Positions 31,541 through 48,101 of a stretch of DNA of 64,000 nucleotides are shown here, piece after piece. Location: the NCBI GenBank assembly GCA_963674745.2, contig CAXXDV010000001.1, positions 224,001-288,000 of the forward strand. The letters run 5' to 3'. How positions within the stretch are numbered: the stretch's first letter is position 1; each line of letters starts with the position of its first letter. The stretch comes from Desulfosudaceae bacterium (GTDB taxonomy: Bacteria > Desulfobacterota > Desulfobacteria > Desulfobacterales > Desulfosudaceae). The translations under genes were made by a program, and so were the position numbers. The notes beneath the pieces are model-generated. The model did not search any database. It had not been told where the DNA came from and saw nothing but the letters and a program-made list of their open reading frames with translations.

Positions 31541-31849
31541 CTATAATTTAATCGCCACATCCACACCAGGCGAAAGATCCAGTTTCATCAACGCGTCAAC
31601 CGTCTGCTGGGTCGGTTCCAGAATATCAAGCAGCCGTTTATGCGTCCGCATCTCAAACTGCTCTCGCGACTTCTTGTTCACGTGCGGTGAGCGTAAAACA
31701 CAATATTTGTTGATTCTGGTCGGAAGCGGAATCGGTCCCAAAACTTTCGCCCCGGTCTTCCGGGCGGTATCAACAATATCCAGAGCGGATTGATCCAGCA
31801 GCTTATGATCGTACGCCTTAAGTTTGATTCTGATTTTTGTATTCATCAT
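31541..31849 (-). CDS. rpsJ: 30S ribosomal protein S10
   Basis: [30 protein letters not shown]. Confidence 0.98.
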
Positions 31850-31890
31850 CTTCTTAAAAATTCCAAATCAGCCGTAACGCTGTGGCGAGG

Positions 31891-33084
31891 TTATTCAATA
31901 ATTTCGCTGACGACACCGGCGCCGACCGTACGGCCGCCTTCACGGACCGCGAACCGAAGCTCTTTTTCCATGGCGATCGGTGTAATCAACTCTCCGGTTA
32001 TCGTTACATTATCCCCGGGCATTACCATCTCGACGCCTTCCGGAAGCGTCAGAATACCCGTTACATCCGTTGTCCGGAAATAAAACTGCGGACGGTACCC
32101 GCTGAAAAACGGGGTGTGCCGACCGCCTTCTTCCTTGCTTAATATGTATACTTCCGCCTTGAACTTGGTGTGCGGTGTAATCGATTTGGGCTTGGCCGCA
32201 ACCTGACCACGCTCGACCTCATCCCGCTTGGTTCCGCGCAGCAACAGCCCCACGTTGTCTCCGGCCCGGCCTTCGTCCAGAAGCTTGCGGAACATCTCCA
32301 CGCCCGTGCACACCGTCTTGGCCGTATCACGGATACCCACCAGCTCAACCTCTTCACCGACCTTGATGATGCCGCGCTCGATACGACCGGTAACCACCGT
32401 ACCACGTCCGGAAATACTGAACACGTCCTCGATGGGCATCAGGAAGGGCTTGTCGATATCACGCTCCGGCTCGGGAATATAAGAATCCAGGACTTCCAGC
32501 AGCTCGAATATGCACTTGGCTTCATCGCTGTCCGGATCATCGCTCTCCAGCGCCTTCAACGCGCTGCCCCGGATAATCGGCGTGTCGTCACCGGGAAAAT
32601 CATATTTGTCCAGAAGCTCCCGAAGTTCCAGCTCGACCAGCTCGATCAGTTCCTCGTCATCCACCATGTCGCATTTGTTCAAAAATACCACGATGCTCGG
32701 AACACCAACCTGGCGGGCCAGGAGAATATGCTCACGCGTCTGCGGCATGGGACCGTCATCGGCACCGACCACCAGAATCGCGCCGTCCATCTGAGCGGCA
32801 CCCGTAATCATGTTCTTGATATAGTCCGCGTGACCGGGGCAGTCCACGTGCGCGTAATGCCGTTTGGCTGTTTCATATTCAACATGCGCCGTCGCGATCG
32901 TAATACCACGCTCACGTTCCTCGGGCGCCTTGTCGATCTGATCAAAGGCCACGTACTGCGCCAGGCCCTTCAAACCACTGTGCTTGGTAATGGCCGCCGT
33001 CAGCGTCGTTTTGCCATGGTCGATATGGCCAATCGTACCTACATTCACATGCGGCTTGGTCCGCTCAAATTTTGCTTTTGACAT
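31891..33084 (-). CDS. tuf: Elongation factor Tu (str-operon copy)
   Basis: [30 protein letters not shown]. Confidence 0.99.
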
Positions 33085-33143
33085 CTTTTCCCCCTTTTAA
33101 TAAGGAACAATCGATATTTATTAATATTCTTATTTTATTAAGT

Positions 33144-33617
<474 letters not shown>

Positions 33618-33686
33618 TCACACCATCATTGTCTGTTAAATAAAATGTCGCATCCTCTGCGACAATTAGTATTTTAATTTATTCAA

Positions 33687-34058
33687 TTATTTAGGCTTCT
33701 TGGCACCGTACTTGGACCGGCCCTGACGCCTGTCATCCACGCCCAGCGTATCTAACGTACCCCGGACGATATGATAACGGACACCCGGAAGGTCCTTTAC
33801 ACGACCGCCCCTGACAAGCACCACCGAGTGCTCCTGCAGGTTGTGCCCCACACCCGGGATATAGGCCGTGACTTCCGTACCCGTCGTCAACCGCACCCTG
33901 GCCACCTTACGCAACGCGGAGTTGGGTTTTTTGGGCGTTGAAGTATAAACTCTAACGCACACCCCTCTTTTCTGAGGAGACCCTTTCAAGGCCGGGGTAG
34001 TCGTCTTCTTACTGACTTTCTTTCTGCCTTTGCGAACCAACTGATTGATTGTCGGCAT
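33687..34058 (-). CDS. rpsL: 30S ribosomal protein S12
   Basis: [29 protein letters not shown]. Confidence 0.99.
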
Positions 34059-34201: not shown

Positions 34202-37200
34202 TTATCGGGCAACTGCTTCATTGGCCTTCTTTTCCTTCTGATATTCCACGAATCCGGTTCCGGCCGGGATCAATCTGCCCATGACCAGGTTTTCCTTCAA
34301 GCCCCTTAAATTATCAACTTTTCCGGCGATACTGGCATCCGTCAGGACCTTAGTGGTTTCCTGGAATGAGGCCGCCGAGATGAAGCTGTCCGTCGCCAGG
34401 GAGGCCTTGGTAATACCGAGAATCAACGGTTCACCGACAGCCGGCCGACCGCCTTTTTCAACCGCCTCCCGGTTGGCTTCCTCGAATCTGATCTTATCCA
34501 CCTGTTCGTCGGTGATAAATTCCGTATCACCGGTTTGCTTGATTTTAATCCGGCGCATCATCTGGCGGACAATCACTTCGATGTGCTTGTCGTTGATCGA
34601 AACACCCTGCAACCGGTAAACCTCCTGGACTTCGTTCACCAGGTACCTTGCCAGTTCAACATCGCCCTTGATGCTCAGAACGTCCTGGGGATTGGCGGAT
34701 CCGGCCACGATCTCTTCGCCGGCTTTGATATAATCACCGTCATACAGGTTGATATGCTTGCCCCGGGGGATGAGATATTCTCTGGGCTCTCCGCCGTCAA
34801 TCGGTGTCACCGTCACCTTCTGCTTGCCCTTTTTCGTGGCTGCCCTGGCAATGGTGACATAACCGTTAATTTCGCTTAAGACCGCCGGTTCCTTGGGCTT
34901 CCGGACTTCGAAAAGCTCGGCCACACGCGGCAGACCACCGGTGATATCCTTGGTTTTGGTTGTCGACCGCGGCAGCTTGGCGATTACATCACCGGCCCGG
35001 ATTTCATCGTTCTCTTCAACCAGGATAACCGCGTCAACCGGCAGGGGATAACGGGAGAACCCTTTACCACCCGGCAAGGCCGCGGTTTTCCCATCTTTGT
35101 CCTTGATGGAAATTCTGGGTCGCACGTCATGGGCTTTACTGTCGACAATGGTACGGCTGGATTTTCCGGTTACCGGGTCAACCAGTTCCTGCATGGTTTT
35201 ACCGATAAGGATATCGCCGAACTTGACCACACCGCCGATTTCCGCGACAATCGGCGTCGTAAAAGGATCCCAGGTGGCCAGCAGGTCACCGGCTTTGATA
35301 CTTTCGCCTTCCTTGACGGTAACGGTAGCGCCGTAAATGACCGGACATTTTTCAACCTCTTTTCCGGACTTGCTCATAATGGTAAACTCACCGCCCCGGC
35401 GATCCATGACAACATTCTGGTTGTCAGCGTTCATAACCAGGTTGAGAGCGCCGAAACTGACGACGCCGTCCACGCGGGCCCTGATTTCGGCCTGGGCCAC
35501 CTTCCGGCTGGCCGCGCCGCCGATATGAAACGTCCGCATGGTCAGCTGGGTACCGGGCTCACCGATGGACTGGGCAGCCAGAATACCGACCGCCTGGCCC
35601 AGTTCGATCAGCTTGCCGTGGGCAAAATCCCGGCCATAACACTTGGCACAGATGCCTTTTCTGCTCTTACAGGTCAATACCGACCGGATCCTGATCTTGG
35701 TAATACCCGAATTCTGAATGGCATCCACGTGCTGCTCGGTGATTTCTTCACCCTGATGAACGATCAGTTCATCGGTAAAAGGATCGGAAATATCTTCCGT
35801 CGCGATACGGCCGAGGACCCGGTCAACCAGCCGCTCAATGACCTCGCCGCCTTCCACCAGGGACTCCACTTCAACCCCCATAATGGTGCCGCAGTCTTCT
35901 TCTTCAATCACGCAATCCTGGGCCACGTCCGCCAGTTTTCTGGTCAGATACCCGGAGTTGGCCGTTTTAAGCGCCGTATCCGCCAACCCTTTCCGTGCAC
36001 CGTGGGTCGAGATAAAATACTGCAGAACGCTCAGCCCCTCCCGGAAGTTGGCCGTAATCGGGGTTTCGATAATCTCGCCCGAAGGTTTGGCCATCAGCCC
36101 GCGCATACCCGCCAGCTGACGCATCTGGTCCTTACTGCCCCGGGCGCCGGAATCGGCCATGATGTAAATGGGGTTAAAACGGTTTTGTACACCTTCTTCT
36201 TCGGACGCCCGACCGGCATACCCGGATGTCTTCATGGCTTCCATCATCTCGTTGGCAATGTCATCGGTGGCTTTTGACCAGATATCAACCGCCTTGTTGT
36301 ATTTTTCACCGGCCGTAATCAGACCATCCCGGTACTGGGCGGCGATTTCATCGACTTTCGCTTCAGCTTCCCTGAGGATGGTCACCTTCTTTTCCGGAAC
36401 CACCATGGCGTCAATGGAAATGGAAAGCCCGCCGGCGGTTGAATATTTATAACCGACATCTTTGAGCCGGTCGGCAAAAATGACCGTGGCTTTTACACCG
36501 ATATTTCTGTAAGCGCAATCGACCAGCTCCCGGACCGCTTTTTTCCCCAGGGGCTTATTGACCAGCTCAAAAGGCACTTCGCTCCGCTGGCCTTCCATCA
36601 GGAACAACCGGTAACCGTGCCTGTCTTGTATCACGTCACTGCATTCACCCGGTTTGAGGGAGAACAGATACTCGGCATCGGTCTGGCTGATACCATAATT
36701 ATCTTCCAGAAGATACTGCCGCATGGACAGCTCCCTGACCTTGTCGCTGTCCTCGTGTTTTTCGGCCACCTCGTCAAAGGGCCGCCCTTTTTTGATTTCG
36801 GACAGTCCGGCATTGACATCTTTTTTCGTGGAAGCATGGAACGTACGGAAAACCGGGATATAATCCTGCGGGATAATTTCCCACAAAAACACCCGCCCCA
36901 CGGATGTGTCATAACGTTTACCATTAATACGAACCGTAATGGCCGCGTGCAGATCCACCTTGCCGGCGTCATAAGCCGCAATGACCTCTTCCGGGCCTGA
37001 AAAAATACCGCCCTGGCCCCTGGCACCTTCAAAAATAATCGTCATGTAATACAGGCCCAATACGATATCCTGGGTGGGGACGATAATCGGACTGCCGTTG
37101 GCCGGGGACAGAATATTATTGGATGACAGCATCAGCACCCGGGCTTCAATCTGCGCTTCGACCGAAAGCGGCACATGAACCGCCATCTGGTCACCGTCAA

Positions 37201-38581
37201 AATCGGCGTTAAAGGCCGTACATACCAACGGATGCAGCTGAATGGCCTTACCCTCGATTAAAACCGGTTCAAAGGCCTGGATACCCAGCCGGTGAAGTGT
37301 CGGCGCCCGGTTTAACATAACCGGATATTCTTTAACAACCTCTTCGAGGGTATCCCACACCTCGGGTGTTTCCCGCTCAACCATTTTCTTGGCGCTTTTG
37401 ACAGTCGAGACATAACCTTTCTGTTCCAACCGGTAATAAATAAACGGTTTGAACAACTCCAGGGCCATCTGCTTGGGCAGACCGCATTGATGGAGCCTCA
37501 GGTTGGGCCCGATGGTAATAACCGTACGACCGGAATAGTCGACACGTTTTCCCAGCAGGTTCTGACGGAAACGGCCCTGTTTACCCTTGAGGGTGTCGGT
37601 CAACGATTTCAACGGCCGTTTGTTGCTGCCGGTGACGGCCCTGCCATGGCGGCCGTTGTCAAACAGCACATCAACCGCTTCCTGCAGCATGCGTTTCTCA
37701 TTGCGCAGGATGATTTCCGGCGCCTTCAACTCGATCAGGCGTTTTAACCGGTTGTTGCGGTTGATCACCCGCCGGTAAAGGTCGTTCAGATCGGAAGTGG
37801 CAAACCGGCCGCCCTCCAGCGGGACCAGCGGTCTTAAGTCCGGCGGCAGCACCGGTATGACATCCATGATCATCCAGGCCGGTGATATTCTGCTTTTCCG
37901 GAAAGCGTCAACGATCTTCAACCGCTTGGACAGTTTTTTGCGCTTGGTCTCAACCGTGGTGGTCTCCAGGTCGGCCCGCAATTCCGCGCTCATGGCTTCA
38001 ATATCGCACCGGGAGAGCAGCTCACGAACCGCTTCGGCGCCCATGTCGGCCACAAAATTTGCGCCGTATTTTTCACGCGCTTCCTGGTACTCCTCTTCGG
38101 ACAGAATCTGCTGATAGCCCAGATCTGTCTCCTTGGGATCGGTCACGATATAGCTGTCGAAGTAAAGAACGCTTTCCAGCTCTTTCTGTGTCAGGTCCAG
38201 CACATTACCGATTTTCGTGGGCAGACTTTTCAAAAACCAGATATGAGAAACCGGTGTCGCCAGCTTGATATGCGCCATTCTTTCCCGCCGCACTTTTGAC
38301 TGAATCACTTCGACGCCGCATTTTTCACAAGTAACCCCACGGTGCTTCATGCGTTTGTATTTGCCGCAATTACACTCAAAATCCTTGATCGGACCGAATA
38401 TCTTGGCGCAGAACAACCCGTCCCGTTCCGGCCGGAAGGTCCTGTAATTAATCGTTTCAGGCTTGGTAATTTCCCCGAAAGACCAGTGCAGGATCTGTTC
38501 CGATGATGCCAGACCGATTTTGATACCTGAAAATGATTTGGGATTAACAGGTTTTGCAAAGAAATCGTATACCGTTTCCAA
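34202..38581 (-). CDS. rpoC: RNA polymerase beta' subunit with a 95-aa insertion at 36581-36865
   Basis: NADFDGDQM active site, Zn-ribbon cysteines, [24 protein letters not shown]. Confidence 0.99.
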
Positions 38582-38584
38582 GAG

Positions 38585-41500
38585 CTACTCCTTACTGTTT
38601 TTCTCAATTAATTTAACGTCCAGCCCCAGCCCTTTCATTTCTTTCATCAACACTTTGAAAGACTCGGGAAGACCGGGGTCAAGGACATTCTGCCCCTTGA
38701 CAATTTTTTCATACATACGGGTACGCCCCGCGATGTCGTCGGATTTAACGGTCAGAAACTCCTGCAGGCCGTAAGCCGCGCCATATGCCTCCATGGCCCA
38801 GACCTCCATTTCACCGAGCCGCTGCCCGCCGAACTGAGCTTTACCGCCCAGGGGTTGCTGGGTAACCAGGGAATAGGGCCCGATTGATCTGGCATGCAGT
38901 TTATCATCAACCAGATGATGCAGCTTGAGCATATACATGGTACCCACCGTAATTTCCTGGTCGAAAGGCTCTCCGCTTCTGCCGTCATACAGTAATGCCT
39001 GACCGGTTTCAGCGACACCACCCTCCTTGAGCAGCTCTTTAATTTCCGCTTCTTTGGCGCCGTCGAACACGGGTGTTTCCATATGCACGCCCAGCCGGTA
39101 CTGTTTCGCAAACTCACACAGATGCGGATCATCCATTTTGTCAATGGCAGAGGGAGAAATGTCTTTAGCGCTGAATATGGCTTTTATTTTTTTCTTTAAC
39201 GCCTTGTAATTCTGCTCGGCGAGCAATTGTTCAATCTGGTATCCCAGGGCCCGGGCAGCCCGTCCCAGATGGATCTCAAGAATCTGACCGACATTCATAC
39301 GGGAAGGAACACCCAGGGGGTTCAAGACCATATCGACCGGCGTGCCGTCCGCGAAGTAGGGCAGATCTTCCTGGGGAAGAATTCTGGAGACAACACCCTT
39401 GTTGCCGTGTCGGCCGGCCATTTTATCCCCGGTTGACAGGACCCGCTTCATGGCCACATAGACCTTGACCATCTTGAACACACCCGGCGGCAGTTCTTCG
39501 CCCACACCGTAACGGTTCACGGCGTTTTCATATTTTTCCCGGCAGGCCTCTTTCTGCTCCCGGCACCATTCAAAAATGGCATAGGCCTTTTCGGCCACCG
39601 TCTCGGATTCAAAAGCGATTTTCTCAAGTTGTGAAAACGTCAGGGACTGCAAAGCATCAAGGGACATTTTGTCACCTTTGTCAAGCAGTGTCTTTTTCCC
39701 TTTTTTGATGGGTGCGGCACATTTTGCGCCATTGGCCAGCTTTTCAAATTCAGAACGGGTGATTTCTTCAATAACCGATATCTCATCATCCCGGTTCCGC
39801 TTGAAAACGGCAATTTCCTCATCCTCAATGGTCCTGGTGCGATCGTCTTTTTCAACACCCCGGCGGGTAAACACCTTGGCGTCTATAACCGTGCCGTTTA
39901 CGCCCGGCGGCACACGCAACGAGGTGTCCTTGACGTTACCACCTTTTTCACCAAAGATGGCCCGCAACAGTTTTTCTTCCGGTGACAGCTGGGTTTCGCC
40001 CTTGGGGGTGATCTTGCCGACCAGGATATCGCCGGGTTTGACTTGCGCACCGGCGCGGATGATACCGCTTTCATCCAGGTCACTCAATCTTTCCTCGCCC
40101 ACGTTTGGAATATCGCAGGTAATTTCTTCCTTACCCAGCTTGATATCCCTGGCGACGACCTCGAATTCCTCAATGTGAATCGAGGTAAACACACCATCCC
40201 GGACCAGGGTTTCGCCGACCAGGATCGAATCCTCAAAGTTGTACCCGCCCCAGGGCATAAAGGCCACCGTGACATTTTTTCCCAGTGCCAGGTCGCCTTT
40301 TTCCGTAGCCGGGCCATCGGCAATGACATCACCGGCTTGAACCACCTGACCTTTTTTTACGATCGGCCGCTGGTTAAAACAGGTGTTCTGATTGGAACGG
40401 ATAAATTTTGACAAATTATAAATGGTGACCGGCCCGGAATCTTTTTTACTTCCTTCCACTTCATGCCGGACGACAATCCGTGAGGCGTCCACATCCGTTA
40501 CCAGCCCGCCCCGCTTGACGACAATGGCGGCCCCGGAGTCCCTGGCCACGATTTTCTCCATGCCGGTGCCGATCAGCGGCGCGCTGGGATTGGCCACCGG
40601 TACCGCCTGGCGCTGCATGTTCGACCCCATCAGCGCCCGGTTGGCGTCATCATGCTCCAGAAAAGGAATCAGAGAGGTGGAGACACTCACCAGCTGAATG
40701 GGCGACACATCCATCAATTCAATATCCTCGGCGTTGACCAGAGAGAACTCGCCATCCACCCGGGAGATAACAACCGGATTGACGTAATGACCTTTCTCGT
40801 CTACAGGCGCATTGGCCTGGGCAATCGGATGATGGCCCTCTTCAAAAGCGGAAAGGGTTCTAAGCTCTTTGGTCACCGTGGAATCCTCGACCACACGATA
40901 CGGCGTTTCTATGAATCCGTAGTTGTTTACCTTGGCGTAAGCGCTGAGCGAAACGATCAAACCGATGTTCGGTCCTTCCGGCGTTTCAATGGGGCAGATC
41001 CGGCCGTAATGAGAGGGATGCACGTCCCTGACTTCAAACCCGGCCCGTTCACGGGTCAGCCCACCCGGACCGAGGGCGCTCAACCGCCGTTTGTGAGTGG
41101 TTTCCGAAAGGGGATTGGTCTGATCGAGAAACTGGGACAGCTGGCTGGTTCCGAAAAACTCCCGGACAACCGCTGAAACCGGCTTGGGATTGACCAGGTC
41201 ATGGGGCATCAGCACATCCACTTCCTGGAGGCTCATGCGTTCCTTGATGGCCCGTTCCATACGGATAAGCCCGATGCGGTACTGGTTTTCAAGCAGCTCG
41301 CCGACGGCACGCACCCGCCTGTTGCCCAGATGGTCGATATCATCGACCTGGCCCTGGACATTTTTCAGATCGATCAGCGTCTTTACCGCCAGGAGCAGGT
41401 CTTCTTTTCTCAATGTCGGCAAATCCACCCGGGCGTCTATGCCCAGACGATGATTCAGCTTCAACCGACCGACCGAGGAAAGATCATAATAGTCCGGTTT

Positions 41501-42694
41501 AAAAAACAAGTGATCAACGAAATCCTGGGCCACTTCAGGGGTGGCCGGATTCCCGGGACGCAGACGTTTGTAAATGTCGATCAGGGCGTCCTCGCGGGTT
41601 TCCACCTTGTCCAGCAGCAGGGTTTTAATAATGGAATCGGTGTGAATCGTTTCGTCGACAAACAGAATTTCAAAGGTGTCAATACCCGCGTCACGCATGG
41701 TATCAATCAGTTCTTCGGTCACAAAGTCACCGGCGTCGGCTAACATTTCACCGCTTTCAGGCGCATAAACCGTAACGCCGCACACTTTGCCGACAACATC
41801 TTCAAGGTTAATGGGTATCATATCGATACCGGCGGATTTGATGGCCCGCATCACCCGTGTACTGAACACCCGCCCTTTATCAACAATAATATCACCGGTT
41901 TCCGGATTTTTCAGGCGGGTCGACGCGCGCTGGCCCCGCAGCGCCTCTTCATTAAGCTGCTTGAAGATTTTCCTGCCTTTCAGGAAAACCTGTTCATTGG
42001 TATAAAAATAGTCCAGGATATCCTTGCGGCTGTAGCCCAGCGCTTTGAACAGGATGGTGGCCGGAAATTTCCGCCGCCGATCGATGCGCAGATAAACCAC
42101 ATCCTTGGGGTCAATCTCCATGTCGATCCATGAGCCTCTAACCGGAATGATACGGGCGCTGTAAATCACCCGGCCGCTGGAATAGGTTTTTCCCTGGTCG
42201 TGGCTGAAGAAAATACCGGATGAACGGTGCAACTGGCTGACCACCGCCCGCTCAGTGCCATTGATAATAAACGTGCCGTTATCCGTCATCAGGGGTATCG
42301 CGCCGAAGTAAATCTCCTGCTCCTTGATGTCCCGGATACTGGACGTCCCGGTTTCCGCTTCGACGTCATAAACAACCAGCCTGGCCCTGATTCGCACCGG
42401 TACCTCGTAGGTCATCCCTCGCTGGACACACTCTGAAACAGAATGTTTGACGGCACCAAAAGAATAGGCCACAAATTCCAGGGAAGCGCTTTCTGTAAAA
42501 TCCTTGATCGGAAAAACAGAATTAAAAATCGCCTGCAAACCGATATTCTCGCGATCTTCCGGTAACTTATCCAGCTGCAGAAAACGACTGTAGGACTCCT
42601 TCTGCATACCGATAAGATCCGGGATCTCCGCAATTCTCTCAAGCTTGCCAAAATTTTTTCTAACGCGCTTGCCGATGATTGATTCGCCTGACAT
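38585..42694 (-). CDS. rpoB: RNA polymerase beta subunit
   Basis: [32 protein letters not shown]. Confidence 0.99.
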
Positions 42695-46165: not shown

Positions 46166-46241
46166 TGGCAGGCCAGGAGGGATTTGAACCCCCAACCCCC
46201 GGATTTGGAGTCCGACGCTCTGCCGTTAGAGCTACTGGCCT
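46166..46241 (-). tRNA. tRNA-Trp(CCA)
   Basis: Cloverleaf with anticodon loop CT-CCA-AA, TTCAAAT T-loop, encoded CCA end. Confidence 0.95.
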
Positions 46242-46487: not shown

Positions 46488-47681
46488 CTATTCAATAATT
46501 TCGCTGACGACACCGGCGCCGACCGTACGGCCGCCTTCACGGACCGCGAACCGAAGCTCTTTTTCCATGGCGATCGGTGTAATCAACTCTCCGGTTATCG
46601 TTACATTATCCCCGGGCATTACCATCTCGACGCCTTCCGGAAGCGTCAGAATACCCGTTACATCCGTTGTCCGGAAATAAAACTGCGGACGGTACCCGCT
46701 GAAAAACGGGGTGTGCCGACCGCCTTCTTCCTTGCTTAATATGTATACTTCCGCCTTGAACTTGGTGTGCGGTGTAATCGATTTGGGCTTGGCCGCAACC
46801 TGACCACGCTCGACCTCATCCCGCTTGGTTCCGCGCAGCAACAGCCCCACGTTGTCTCCGGCCCGGCCTTCGTCCAGAAGCTTGCGGAACATCTCCACGC
46901 CCGTGCACACCGTCTTGGCCGTATCACGGATACCCACCAGCTCAACCTCTTCACCGACCTTGATGATGCCGCGCTCGATACGACCGGTAACCACCGTACC
47001 ACGTCCGGAAATACTGAACACGTCCTCGATGGGCATCAGGAAGGGCTTGTCGATATCACGCTCCGGCTCGGGAATATAAGAATCCAGGACTTCCAGCAGC
47101 TCGAATATGCACTTGGCTTCATCGCTGTCCGGATCATCGCTCTCCAGCGCCTTCAACGCGCTGCCCCGGATAATCGGCGTGTCGTCACCGGGAAAATCAT
47201 ATTTGTCCAGAAGCTCCCGAAGTTCCAGCTCGACCAGCTCGATCAGTTCCTCGTCATCCACCATGTCGCATTTGTTCAAAAATACCACGATGCTCGGAAC
47301 ACCAACCTGGCGGGCCAGGAGAATATGCTCACGCGTCTGCGGCATGGGACCGTCATCGGCACCGACCACCAGAATCGCGCCGTCCATCTGAGCGGCACCC
47401 GTAATCATGTTCTTGATATAGTCCGCGTGACCGGGGCAGTCCACGTGCGCGTAATGCCGTTTGGCTGTTTCATATTCAACATGCGCCGTCGCGATCGTAA
47501 TACCACGCTCACGTTCCTCGGGCGCCTTGTCGATCTGATCAAAGGCCACGTACTGCGCCAGGCCCTTCAAACCACTGTGCTTGGTAATGGCCGCCGTCAG
47601 CGTCGTTTTGCCATGGTCGATATGACCAATCGTACCTACATTCACATGCGGCTTGGTCCGCTCAAATTTTGCTTTTGACAT
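46488..47681 (-). CDS. tuf: Elongation factor Tu (tRNA-operon copy)
   Basis: Protein identical to 31891-33084. Confidence 0.99.
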
Positions 47682-47738: not shown

Positions 47739-47815
47739 TGGAGCCCACGACCGGAATCGAACCGGTGAACCTCTTCCTTACCAAGGAAGCGCTCTACCGA
47801 CTGAGCTACGTGGGC
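47739..47815 (-). tRNA. tRNA-Thr(GGT)
   Basis: CTTCC-TT-GGT-AA-GGAAG anticodon arm, CCA end. Confidence 0.95.
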
Positions 47816-47831
47816 CTTAACAGTCCTTTTC

Positions 47832-47907
<76 letters not shown>

Positions 47908-47922
47908 AACCGCTAAAACAGG

Positions 47923-48008
47923 TGGTGGTGGGGGGAGGATTTGAACCTCCGAAGGCGAATGCCGACAGATTTACAGTCTGTTCCCTTTGGCCGCTCGGGA
48001 ACCCCACC
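47923..48008 (-). tRNA. tRNA-Tyr(GTA)
   Basis: ACAGA-CT-GTA-AA-TCTGT, long variable arm, CCA end. Confidence 0.95.
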
Positions 48009-48025
48009 ATCCGGGTATATCACTA

Positions 48026-48101
48026 TGGAGCCAGCGGAGGGACTCGAACCCCCGACCGACTGATTACAAATCAGTAGCTCTACCATCTGAGCTACGCTGG
48101 C
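48026..48101 (-). tRNA. tRNA-Thr(TGT)
   Basis: ACTGA-TT-TGT-AA-TCAGT, CCA end; classic Thr-Tyr-Gly-Thr-tuf cluster. Confidence 0.95.

Follow-up and report, generated by a model that had tools for sequence, protein, structure and literature searches.

What are 95 additional residues doing inside the beta' subunit of a bacterial RNA polymerase (RNAP)? The question is raised by rpoC, the gene for beta', in a stretch of 64,000 nucleotides from a Desulfosudaceae bacterium (assembly GCA_963674745.2, contig CAXXDV010000001.1, positions 224,001 to 288,000 of the forward strand; hereafter the window). Our data show that the additional residues are a true parvulin domain and that they represent a lineage-specific RNAP insertion, near-universal in the order Desulfobacterales. 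The copy in the window is a derived form of this order-wide insert, which elsewhere mostly keeps both histidines of the parvulin catalytic set, and this goes beyond what the first-pass annotation of the locus had proposed. As a whole, the observations are probably best accounted for by a parvulin-fold insertion in beta' that was gained a single time and that in Desulfosudaceae has become a derived, non-catalytic module for docking or bracing.

The insert comprises RpoC residues 573-667 (36581..36865, minus strand) and is in frame. On its N-terminal side it is flanked by the 11 residues 562-572 (36866..36898, minus strand), of which Q572 aligns to K585 of E. coli beta', and on its C-terminal side by the 14 residues 668-681 (36539..36580, minus strand), in which V669 corresponds to E. 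coli L587 and K680/K681 to K598/K599. The E. coli numbering is that of the full-length beta' chain of 1407 amino acids (aa) and was obtained by phmmer against all PDB chains; none of the 60 beta' chain sequences listed in that search aligned through the insert. The first-pass annotation had placed 95 extra in-frame residues between two motifs that are contiguous in E. coli, had recognised in them a parvulin signature and had seen no intein motifs. The boundaries proved exact, with the flanks mapping to K585 and L587, and the parvulin assignment is borne out by the comparisons described below. Intein junctions have Cys, Ser or Thr as the first residue, and His-Asn followed by Cys, Ser or Thr at the end. 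The insert begins with Asp and ends in Arg-Ser, followed by Glu, and there is no intein family among its Pfam matches at E<=10; an intein was rejected on these grounds. The GC content of the insert is 0.519 versus 0.538 for the rest of rpoC, and at third codon positions (GC3) it is 0.642 versus 0.642. Recent horizontal acquisition, or a mobile element, is ruled out by this rpoC-like GC and GC3 and by the order-wide vertical inheritance of the insert.

Taken alone, the 95 residues match the Pfam Rotamase family (PF00639) with E=5.8e-4 and 21.2 bits against a cut-off of 21.7, and in a genome-wide search of the organism's own genome the insert scores 19.7 bits, which is also below the cut-off, so that routine Pfam annotation is expected to miss it here. 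The same residues match the parvulin domain of PrsA (1zk6) with E=9e-4. An exhaustive phmmer search of 1.84 billion representative sequences gave 17 matches at E<=1e-3, 15 of which belong to the Rotamase family according to Pfam and two of which are repeat or low-complexity proteins. No RpoC was found among these matches in the representative set, in which RpoC clusters at 50% identity are supposedly represented by insert-less proteins, so this negative is uninformative on distribution outside the phylum. When relatives are included the homology becomes much clearer. Each of the 20 inserts in a first alignment (A1) has a PF00639 match at E<=0.01, with 3.8e-13 as the lowest value, and the A1 profile matched 58 distinct PDB sequences, which with one exception carry the name of a parvulin-type prolyl isomerase or chaperone. 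These include PrsA, Par14, Pin1, SurA, PpiC and PpiD, with PrsA 1zk6 at the top (E=9.2e-14). Comparison by hhalign of a profile of 144 inserts with 13 free parvulin domains gave a probability of 99.8% and E=4.6e-28.

Structure prediction leads to the same assignment. The AlphaFold2 model computed on A1 (predicted local distance difference test, pLDDT, 88.2; predicted template modelling score, pTM, 0.78) has the element order strand, helix, helix, strand, helix, helix, strand, strand, and the predicted fold contains the four-stranded antiparallel sheet and helices of a parvulin. All top Foldseek matches in the PDB were parvulins, led by PrsA 4wo7_B (E=6.2e-5, template modelling (TM) score 0.76) and followed by PpiD, Par14, SurA and Pin1, and the TM scores to PrsA structures were in the range 0.74-0.79. 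Relative to the standard parvulin, the model lacks the loop helix and has gained an extra helix after strand 2. The extra helix, the second one after strand 2, results from an added segment of six residues, 630-635 (GISQTD; 36677..36694, minus strand), identified by hhalign and column counts, which is present in the RpoC inserts and corresponds to a gap in the free parvulin domains. The segment ends in Asp635; in this column, 74 of the 131 inserts from outside Desulfosudaceae have Asp and 25 have Glu, and Asp is found in all 13 inserts from inside the family.

The nearest free relatives of the insert profile are proteins from other orders of Desulfobacterota, encoded in open reading frames (ORFs) of about 320-350 aa, with E down to 1.3e-18. 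The closest of all in the profile-profile comparison, P0007, has 311 aa and combines a SurA-like N-terminal domain with a Rotamase domain. The genome from which the window is taken also encodes two ordinary parvulin proteins besides the RpoC insert, in ORFs of 633 aa (G000:C1:767056-767343) and 352 aa (G000:C3:1379700-1379975).

The distribution of the insert was followed in 151 genomes sampled from the order, with RpoC residues 473-767 as query; 140 of them matched at E<=1e-10. The insert is present in 133 of these 140 Desulfobacterales genomes. A single match over the whole query (876-984 nt) was obtained in 125 genomes, and in eight others the insert is split, truncated or enlarged (G056, G100, G129, G087, G013, G083, G066 and G126). 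The seven genomes that do not have it (G019, G032, G057, G081, G093, G142 and G148) gave two abutting matches in ORFs of 1371-1437 aa. The insert was also found in 114 of the 117 matched genomes of a second sample, which had been drawn as a class sample but returned only genomes of the same order and hence provides no separate class-level test. At the level of the phylum (the survey covered Desulfobacterota only), 191 genomes from other orders matched; in 190 of them the two flanks matched separately, and in one (G358) a contig end cuts the sequence. The two flank matches abut in all 16 other-order genomes where both were seen (seven, plus nine with the longest beta' ORFs), and for the remaining genomes the absence of the insert was judged from the two-match pattern together with the ORF lengths. 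Among the 150 matches listed for the insert profile in the phylum sample, beyond which come 282 weaker ones, ORFs of more than 1300 aa came only from the window's genome and same-order genomes, and the ORFs matched in other orders have 227-932 aa. A family-only alignment (A2) recovered nine loci, all from the window's family, which NCBI places within Desulfobacterales. Among the sampled genomes, the insert thus lies in frame between universally conserved regions, occurs in one clade and is absent in its relatives, and it deserves to be called lineage-specific, as the first-pass annotation had supposed.

The insert is rather constant in length. In an alignment of 155 RpoC fragments and the window's own (156 rows), 144 rows have an insert of at least 85 aa, the length being 99 aa in 86 rows and 100 aa in 19, with a range of 85-128 aa. 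Eleven rows have 0-24 aa at the site, four of them out-of-order controls, and in one row a frame break interrupts the insert after 52 aa. In this last case, G013:C12:26634-27535 (L164), rpoC is split into two frames inside the insert, with 52 aa before the frame change, and the break reflects either a disrupted gene or a fault in the assembly. Inserts enlarged to 125-128 aa were observed in G066, G126, G181 and G219 (L145, L146, L148 and L149), with about 27 extra residues within the first half.

A FastTree phylogeny, built from the 200 residues of the flanks with the out-of-order controls as root, has limited resolving power; it places the insert-less G019 and G093 below the insert-bearing clade (support 0.96). 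G032, G057, G081 with G142, and G163 are nested inside the insert-bearing clade and keep remnants of 5-24 residues. The remnant in G163, DNIKRP, resembles the two ends, three residues each, of the insert in its common form. The flanks of G163 are sister to those of a genus-mate that carries the insert, and misbinning as the cause of the missing insert is ruled out for this genome on that ground. From the tree we infer one gain near the base of Desulfobacterales, followed by at least four deletions, and the gained domain would most likely have come from a PrsA/SurA-like protein of about 320-350 aa.

The parvulin catalytic set has two His and a Cys/Asp position, and also includes Thr. In the window's insert, the first His position aligns with Thr580 (36842..36844, minus strand) and the second with Arg658 (36608..36610, minus strand) in the motif GYRLF, where parvulins have GYHIF; both His are thus replaced, and the loop with the Cys/Asp position is shortened. 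Neither His is found in any of the 13 Desulfosudaceae inserts. Residues at the first position include Thr, Ala and Ser; at the second they are Arg in nine, Gly in three and Cys in one. The catalytic loop (SxSxDK...GxxG elsewhere) is shortened by 4-6 residues in the family. The first-pass annotation had noted both replacements and the absence of GGDLG, and had suggested a non-catalytic binding module. The replacements, and the absence or shortening of the GGDLG loop, recur in all 13 family members and make a lack of catalysis probable; binding would be a plausible role for such a domain. Outside Desulfosudaceae the situation is different, the first His being present in 100 and the second in 108 of the 131 inserts (both in 91, one in 26 and neither in 14). 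The Cys/Asp catalytic column in these 131 inserts has Ser in 68, Ala in 16, Gly in 12 and Asp in 8, and a full His-Asp-His set occurs in 5. Two positions, which hhalign pairs with conserved hydrophobic positions in free parvulins, have Phe in 109 and 111 of the 131 inserts outside Desulfosudaceae, and Leu/Met/Ile and Phe/Leu/Tyr, respectively, inside.

The Desulfosudaceae form is derived, since the family is monophyletic (support 0.996) and is nested, 17 nodes deep, among lineages with inserts of 99-100 aa. Within it 22 columns are invariant, including K14, N18, E23-I24-K25, D63, Y66 and C75-S76-D77 in insert numbering. Cys647 in GECSD (36641..36643, minus strand) is invariant in 13/13 Desulfosudaceae, and elsewhere this position is Ile, Val, Thr or His. 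The pairwise ratio of non-synonymous to synonymous substitution rates (dN/dS) is 0.03-0.30 (about 0.1) for the insert versus 0.03-0.08 for the flanks; dS is saturated for distant pairs, and the three unsaturated pairs give 0.125, 0.032 and 0.244. The Desulfosudaceae insert is under purifying selection and is not decaying.

With regard to its place in the polymerase, matches to the NCBIfam models of cyanobacterial gamma (rpoC1) end at residue 555-556, and those to the rpoC2 models begin at residue 668 (profile position 5) and at residue 674 (profile position 3). Since the rpoC1 models end before the insert and the rpoC2 models begin right after it, the insert occupies the natural split point of the cyanobacterial and plastid beta'. 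In E. coli, K598/K599 start a helix, K598-K615, which is described as beginning in the secondary channel, within 6-10 Å of the tip of the DksA coiled coil, and extending to ppGpp site 1, where beta' and omega meet (PMC7676912), and the insert site lies 12 residues before this helix. An AlphaFold model of 295 aa (139 sequences, pLDDT 84.1) predicts the K680 helix at the expected place. In the same model, the helix of the N-terminal flank continues straight into strand 1 of the insert, the junction blocks at both insert ends have pLDDT of 82-91, and about four residues lead from the preceding helix to strand 1. These confident junctions and the short link suggest that the domain is closely held and not tethered. 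By our own comparison with Table 2 of PMC11515920, the site would correspond to the C-terminal edge of the bacteria-specific domain bD4, nested in the universal uD3. A domain of 95 aa is too large for the channel, and the insert is therefore expected on the surface of the enzyme, on the secondary-channel/omega side.

What, then, could the domain do? A parvulin domain sits at the beta' point K585/L587, 12 residues before helix K598-K615, and in Desulfosudaceae it has lost both His, shortened the catalytic loop and acquired new family-invariant residues. In this family the domain probably does not isomerise prolines, and it would more likely serve, on the secondary-channel/omega side, as a folded surface module that docks a protein or peptide or braces the structure. 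We favour docking or bracing because the catalytic set is lost, the pocket hydrophobics are kept, family invariants have arisen, the insert is under purifying selection, and there is a precedent in PpiD. PpiD's parvulin domain is described as devoid of peptidyl-prolyl isomerase (PPIase) activity, yet it has a peptide-binding site (PMC2956729).

If the domain were instead an active prolyl isomerase within RNAP, acting in cis on the folding or assembly of beta' or in trans on transcription factors, it might be likened to a built-in counterpart of Pin1/Ess1 on Pol II. The retention of both His in 91/131 inserts outside Desulfosudaceae and of hydrophobic residues at the two aligned pocket positions would fit such an activity, and the free PpiC protein of E. 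coli co-purifies with NusG, Rho, SuhB and RpoA (PMC7353009), an observation that is no test of the insert. Against it stand the 0/13 Desulfosudaceae inserts with either His and their shortened loop, the order-wide prevalence of Ser (68), Ala (16) and Gly (12) in the Cys/Asp column with Asp in just 8/131 and His-Asp-His in 5/131, and the repeated loss of the His pair, 40/131 inserts being without one or both. In addition, the column three before the second His is Gly, Asp, Glu or Asn; by our counting it equals F81 of PpiC, and the replacement F81A abolishes PpiC activity (PMC7353009). Judged by these residues, isomerase activity is unlikely in the window's family and doubtful in the order as a whole, and we give this explanation very little weight. 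A chance likeness to parvulins, with the insert being an unrelated domain or a known insertion of the SBHM/BBM2 type, has practically no probability. The window's sequence does fall below the Pfam gathering cut-off; however, phmmer, profile, profile-profile and Foldseek comparisons all point strongly to parvulins, and no SBHM/BBM2 family matches residues 573-667, the barrel-sandwich matches in Pfam being found at 1071-1207. This identity was rejected as refuted by the profile, Foldseek and hhalign results.

The domain could also be a functionless passenger at a permissive surface junction, kept since a folded and inert insert harms beta' less than its disruption would. The site tolerates a cut of the chain, as the cyanobacterial split demonstrates, at least four nested lineages deleted the domain and left 5-24 residues (the DNIKRP remnant among them), and the insert evolves faster than its flanks (23-68% versus 66-88% identity). 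This is difficult to reconcile with a length that is nearly constant (99 aa in 86/144) across more than 80 family labels, with a dN/dS of about 0.1, or with the RpoC-specific six-residue segment, which has a conserved Asp at its end and is kept in both subtypes. Moreover, the new invariants fixed in Desulfosudaceae (K14, N18, E23, K25, Y66, C75 and others) are not a matter of drift. We regard a mere passenger as unlikely, if worth keeping in mind. It is also tempting to speculate that the module is a working regulatory port, that is, a dock recognising peptides or prolines beside the secondary channel and the K598-K615 helix towards ppGpp site 1, which recruits or gates a lineage-specific factor or senses a signal. 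In Desulfosudaceae this port would have been retooled for a different ligand by means of a conserved acidic helix and a Cys that is newly invariant, and it might then be seen as a bacterial, built-in analogue of the relationship between Pin1/Ess1 and Pol II. We consider so specific a role improbable.

Several points weigh against the docking or bracing module. Its functional part is inferred, and the three-dimensional position on the enzyme surface derives from sequence neighbours. The single gain relies on a tree of 200 flank residues, and at least four lineages in the order deleted the domain, which is hence dispensable there. The window's sequence by itself is just under the Pfam cut-off, and the assignment to the family leans on its relatives. 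The parvulin His pair is reportedly partly structural, and its loss is no strict proof of inactivity. Finally, because hydrophobic residues are kept at the two pocket-aligned positions, the peptide groove may survive.

The host gene rpoC (34202..38581, minus strand) encodes a beta' of 1459 aa, which matches TIGR02386 with 1752 bits and Pfam Rpb1 domains 1-5. Directly upstream, in the same operon, is rpoB (38585..42694, minus strand; TIGR02013, 1798 bits), and rpoC starts with a TTG codon 3 nt past the rpoB stop. The gene order on the minus strand of the window is tuf, secE, nusG, rplK, rplA, rplJ, rplL, rpoB, rpoC, rpsL, rpsG, tuf, rpsJ. The two tuf genes, coding for elongation factor Tu (31891..33084 and 46488..47681, minus strand), are 1194 nt each and differ at 2 nt only, and the near-identity ends at the borders of the coding sequences, which suggests that the pair is a product of gene conversion. 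In the str-operon region (31541..34058, minus strand), with rpsL, rpsG, tuf and rpsJ, the gap between rpsG and tuf is too small for fusA, and elongation factor G must therefore be encoded elsewhere. The tRNA genes at 46166..46241 and 47739..48101 (minus strand) comprise a tRNA-Trp between tuf and secE and a cluster of tRNA-Thr, Gly, Tyr and Thr upstream of tuf. Long plus-strand ORFs of up to 382 aa lie antisense to rpoC and rpoB, for instance at 35129..36277, and are probably shadow frames caused by codon bias. In the surveyed genomes, unusually long frames containing rpoC were seen in G189:C159 (ORF of 2433 aa), G206 (1635 aa) and G099 (1604 aa), and may represent rpoB-rpoC read-through or fusion, or further insertions. 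An other-order genome has a second, divergent RpoC-like ORF of 1138 aa (G240:C28:30517-31215) beside a normal rpoC.

The first-pass annotation had thought the insert possibly undescribed. We found no description of a parvulin or PPIase insertion in RNAP in a full-text literature search that did not take in Lane & Darst 2010 and Iyer et al. 2004. The main text of the 2024 BEAN/HABAS catalogue (PMC11515920) makes no mention of parvulin, rotamase, PPIase or isomerase, and its supplement contains neither 'Desulf' nor any of the PPIase terms looked for. As far as could be checked, a parvulin-fold RNAP insert is undescribed, and the present one is a lineage-specific insertion of a known kind whose fold class is new. 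Catalogued inserts have so far fallen into very few such classes, to which a prolyl-isomerase fold in beta' would add one. Lineage-specific RNAP inserts, of which E. coli SI3 is an example, influence how the enzyme pauses, initiates and binds factors. The order Desulfobacterales, in which the insert occurs, includes sulfate reducers. The site deserves attention as the place where cyanobacterial beta' is split and as the neighbour, in sequence, of the helix that joins the DksA tip region and ppGpp site 1. Should the module bind a factor, it would constitute a new regulatory surface on the core enzyme. The His-bearing form and the His-free form of Desulfosudaceae amount to a natural experiment, and the insert itself is a clean molecular marker for Desulfobacterales.

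The insert can in several respects be compared to known systems. It shares the fold of the parvulin domains (PF00639/PF13145) of PrsA, SurA and PpiD and has clear sequence homology with them. Like the parvulin domain of PpiD, as far as described, it does not have the full catalytic set. Unlike these secreted or membrane-anchored proteins, it is embedded in a cytoplasmic RNAP and has the extra six-residue segment with the second helix after strand 2, and its Desulfosudaceae form is devoid of both His and of the GGDLG loop. As an in-frame, folded domain that is clade-restricted and vertically inherited, it resembles E. coli SI3 (beta'i6), Thermus beta'i2 and the HABAS, BEAN and sLC inserts, as these are presented in PMC11515920 and PMC2939025. 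The beta' inserts in the former source occupy seven sites and are HABAS for the most part, with BEAN or sLC in variants; the parvulin fold is not among the HABAS (sandwich-barrel hybrid), BEAN (BBM2) and sLC folds it describes, and by our comparison with the same source (PMC11515920) the present insert is at the C-terminal edge of bD4 and not in its middle. With rpoC1 (gamma) and rpoC2 of cyanobacteria and plastids it has the permissive junction in common, but the cyanobacterial beta' chain is cut at this junction, whereas the Desulfobacterales chain is continuous with a domain spliced in. Pin1/Ess1 and the C-terminal domain (CTD) of Pol II likewise link a parvulin-fold protein to a multisubunit RNAP. 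Pin1/Ess1 is a separate, catalytically active enzyme which recognises phospho-Ser-Pro on the Pol II CTD. The insert, by contrast, is covalently built in and without the catalytic residues, and it is part of a bacterial beta' that has no CTD.

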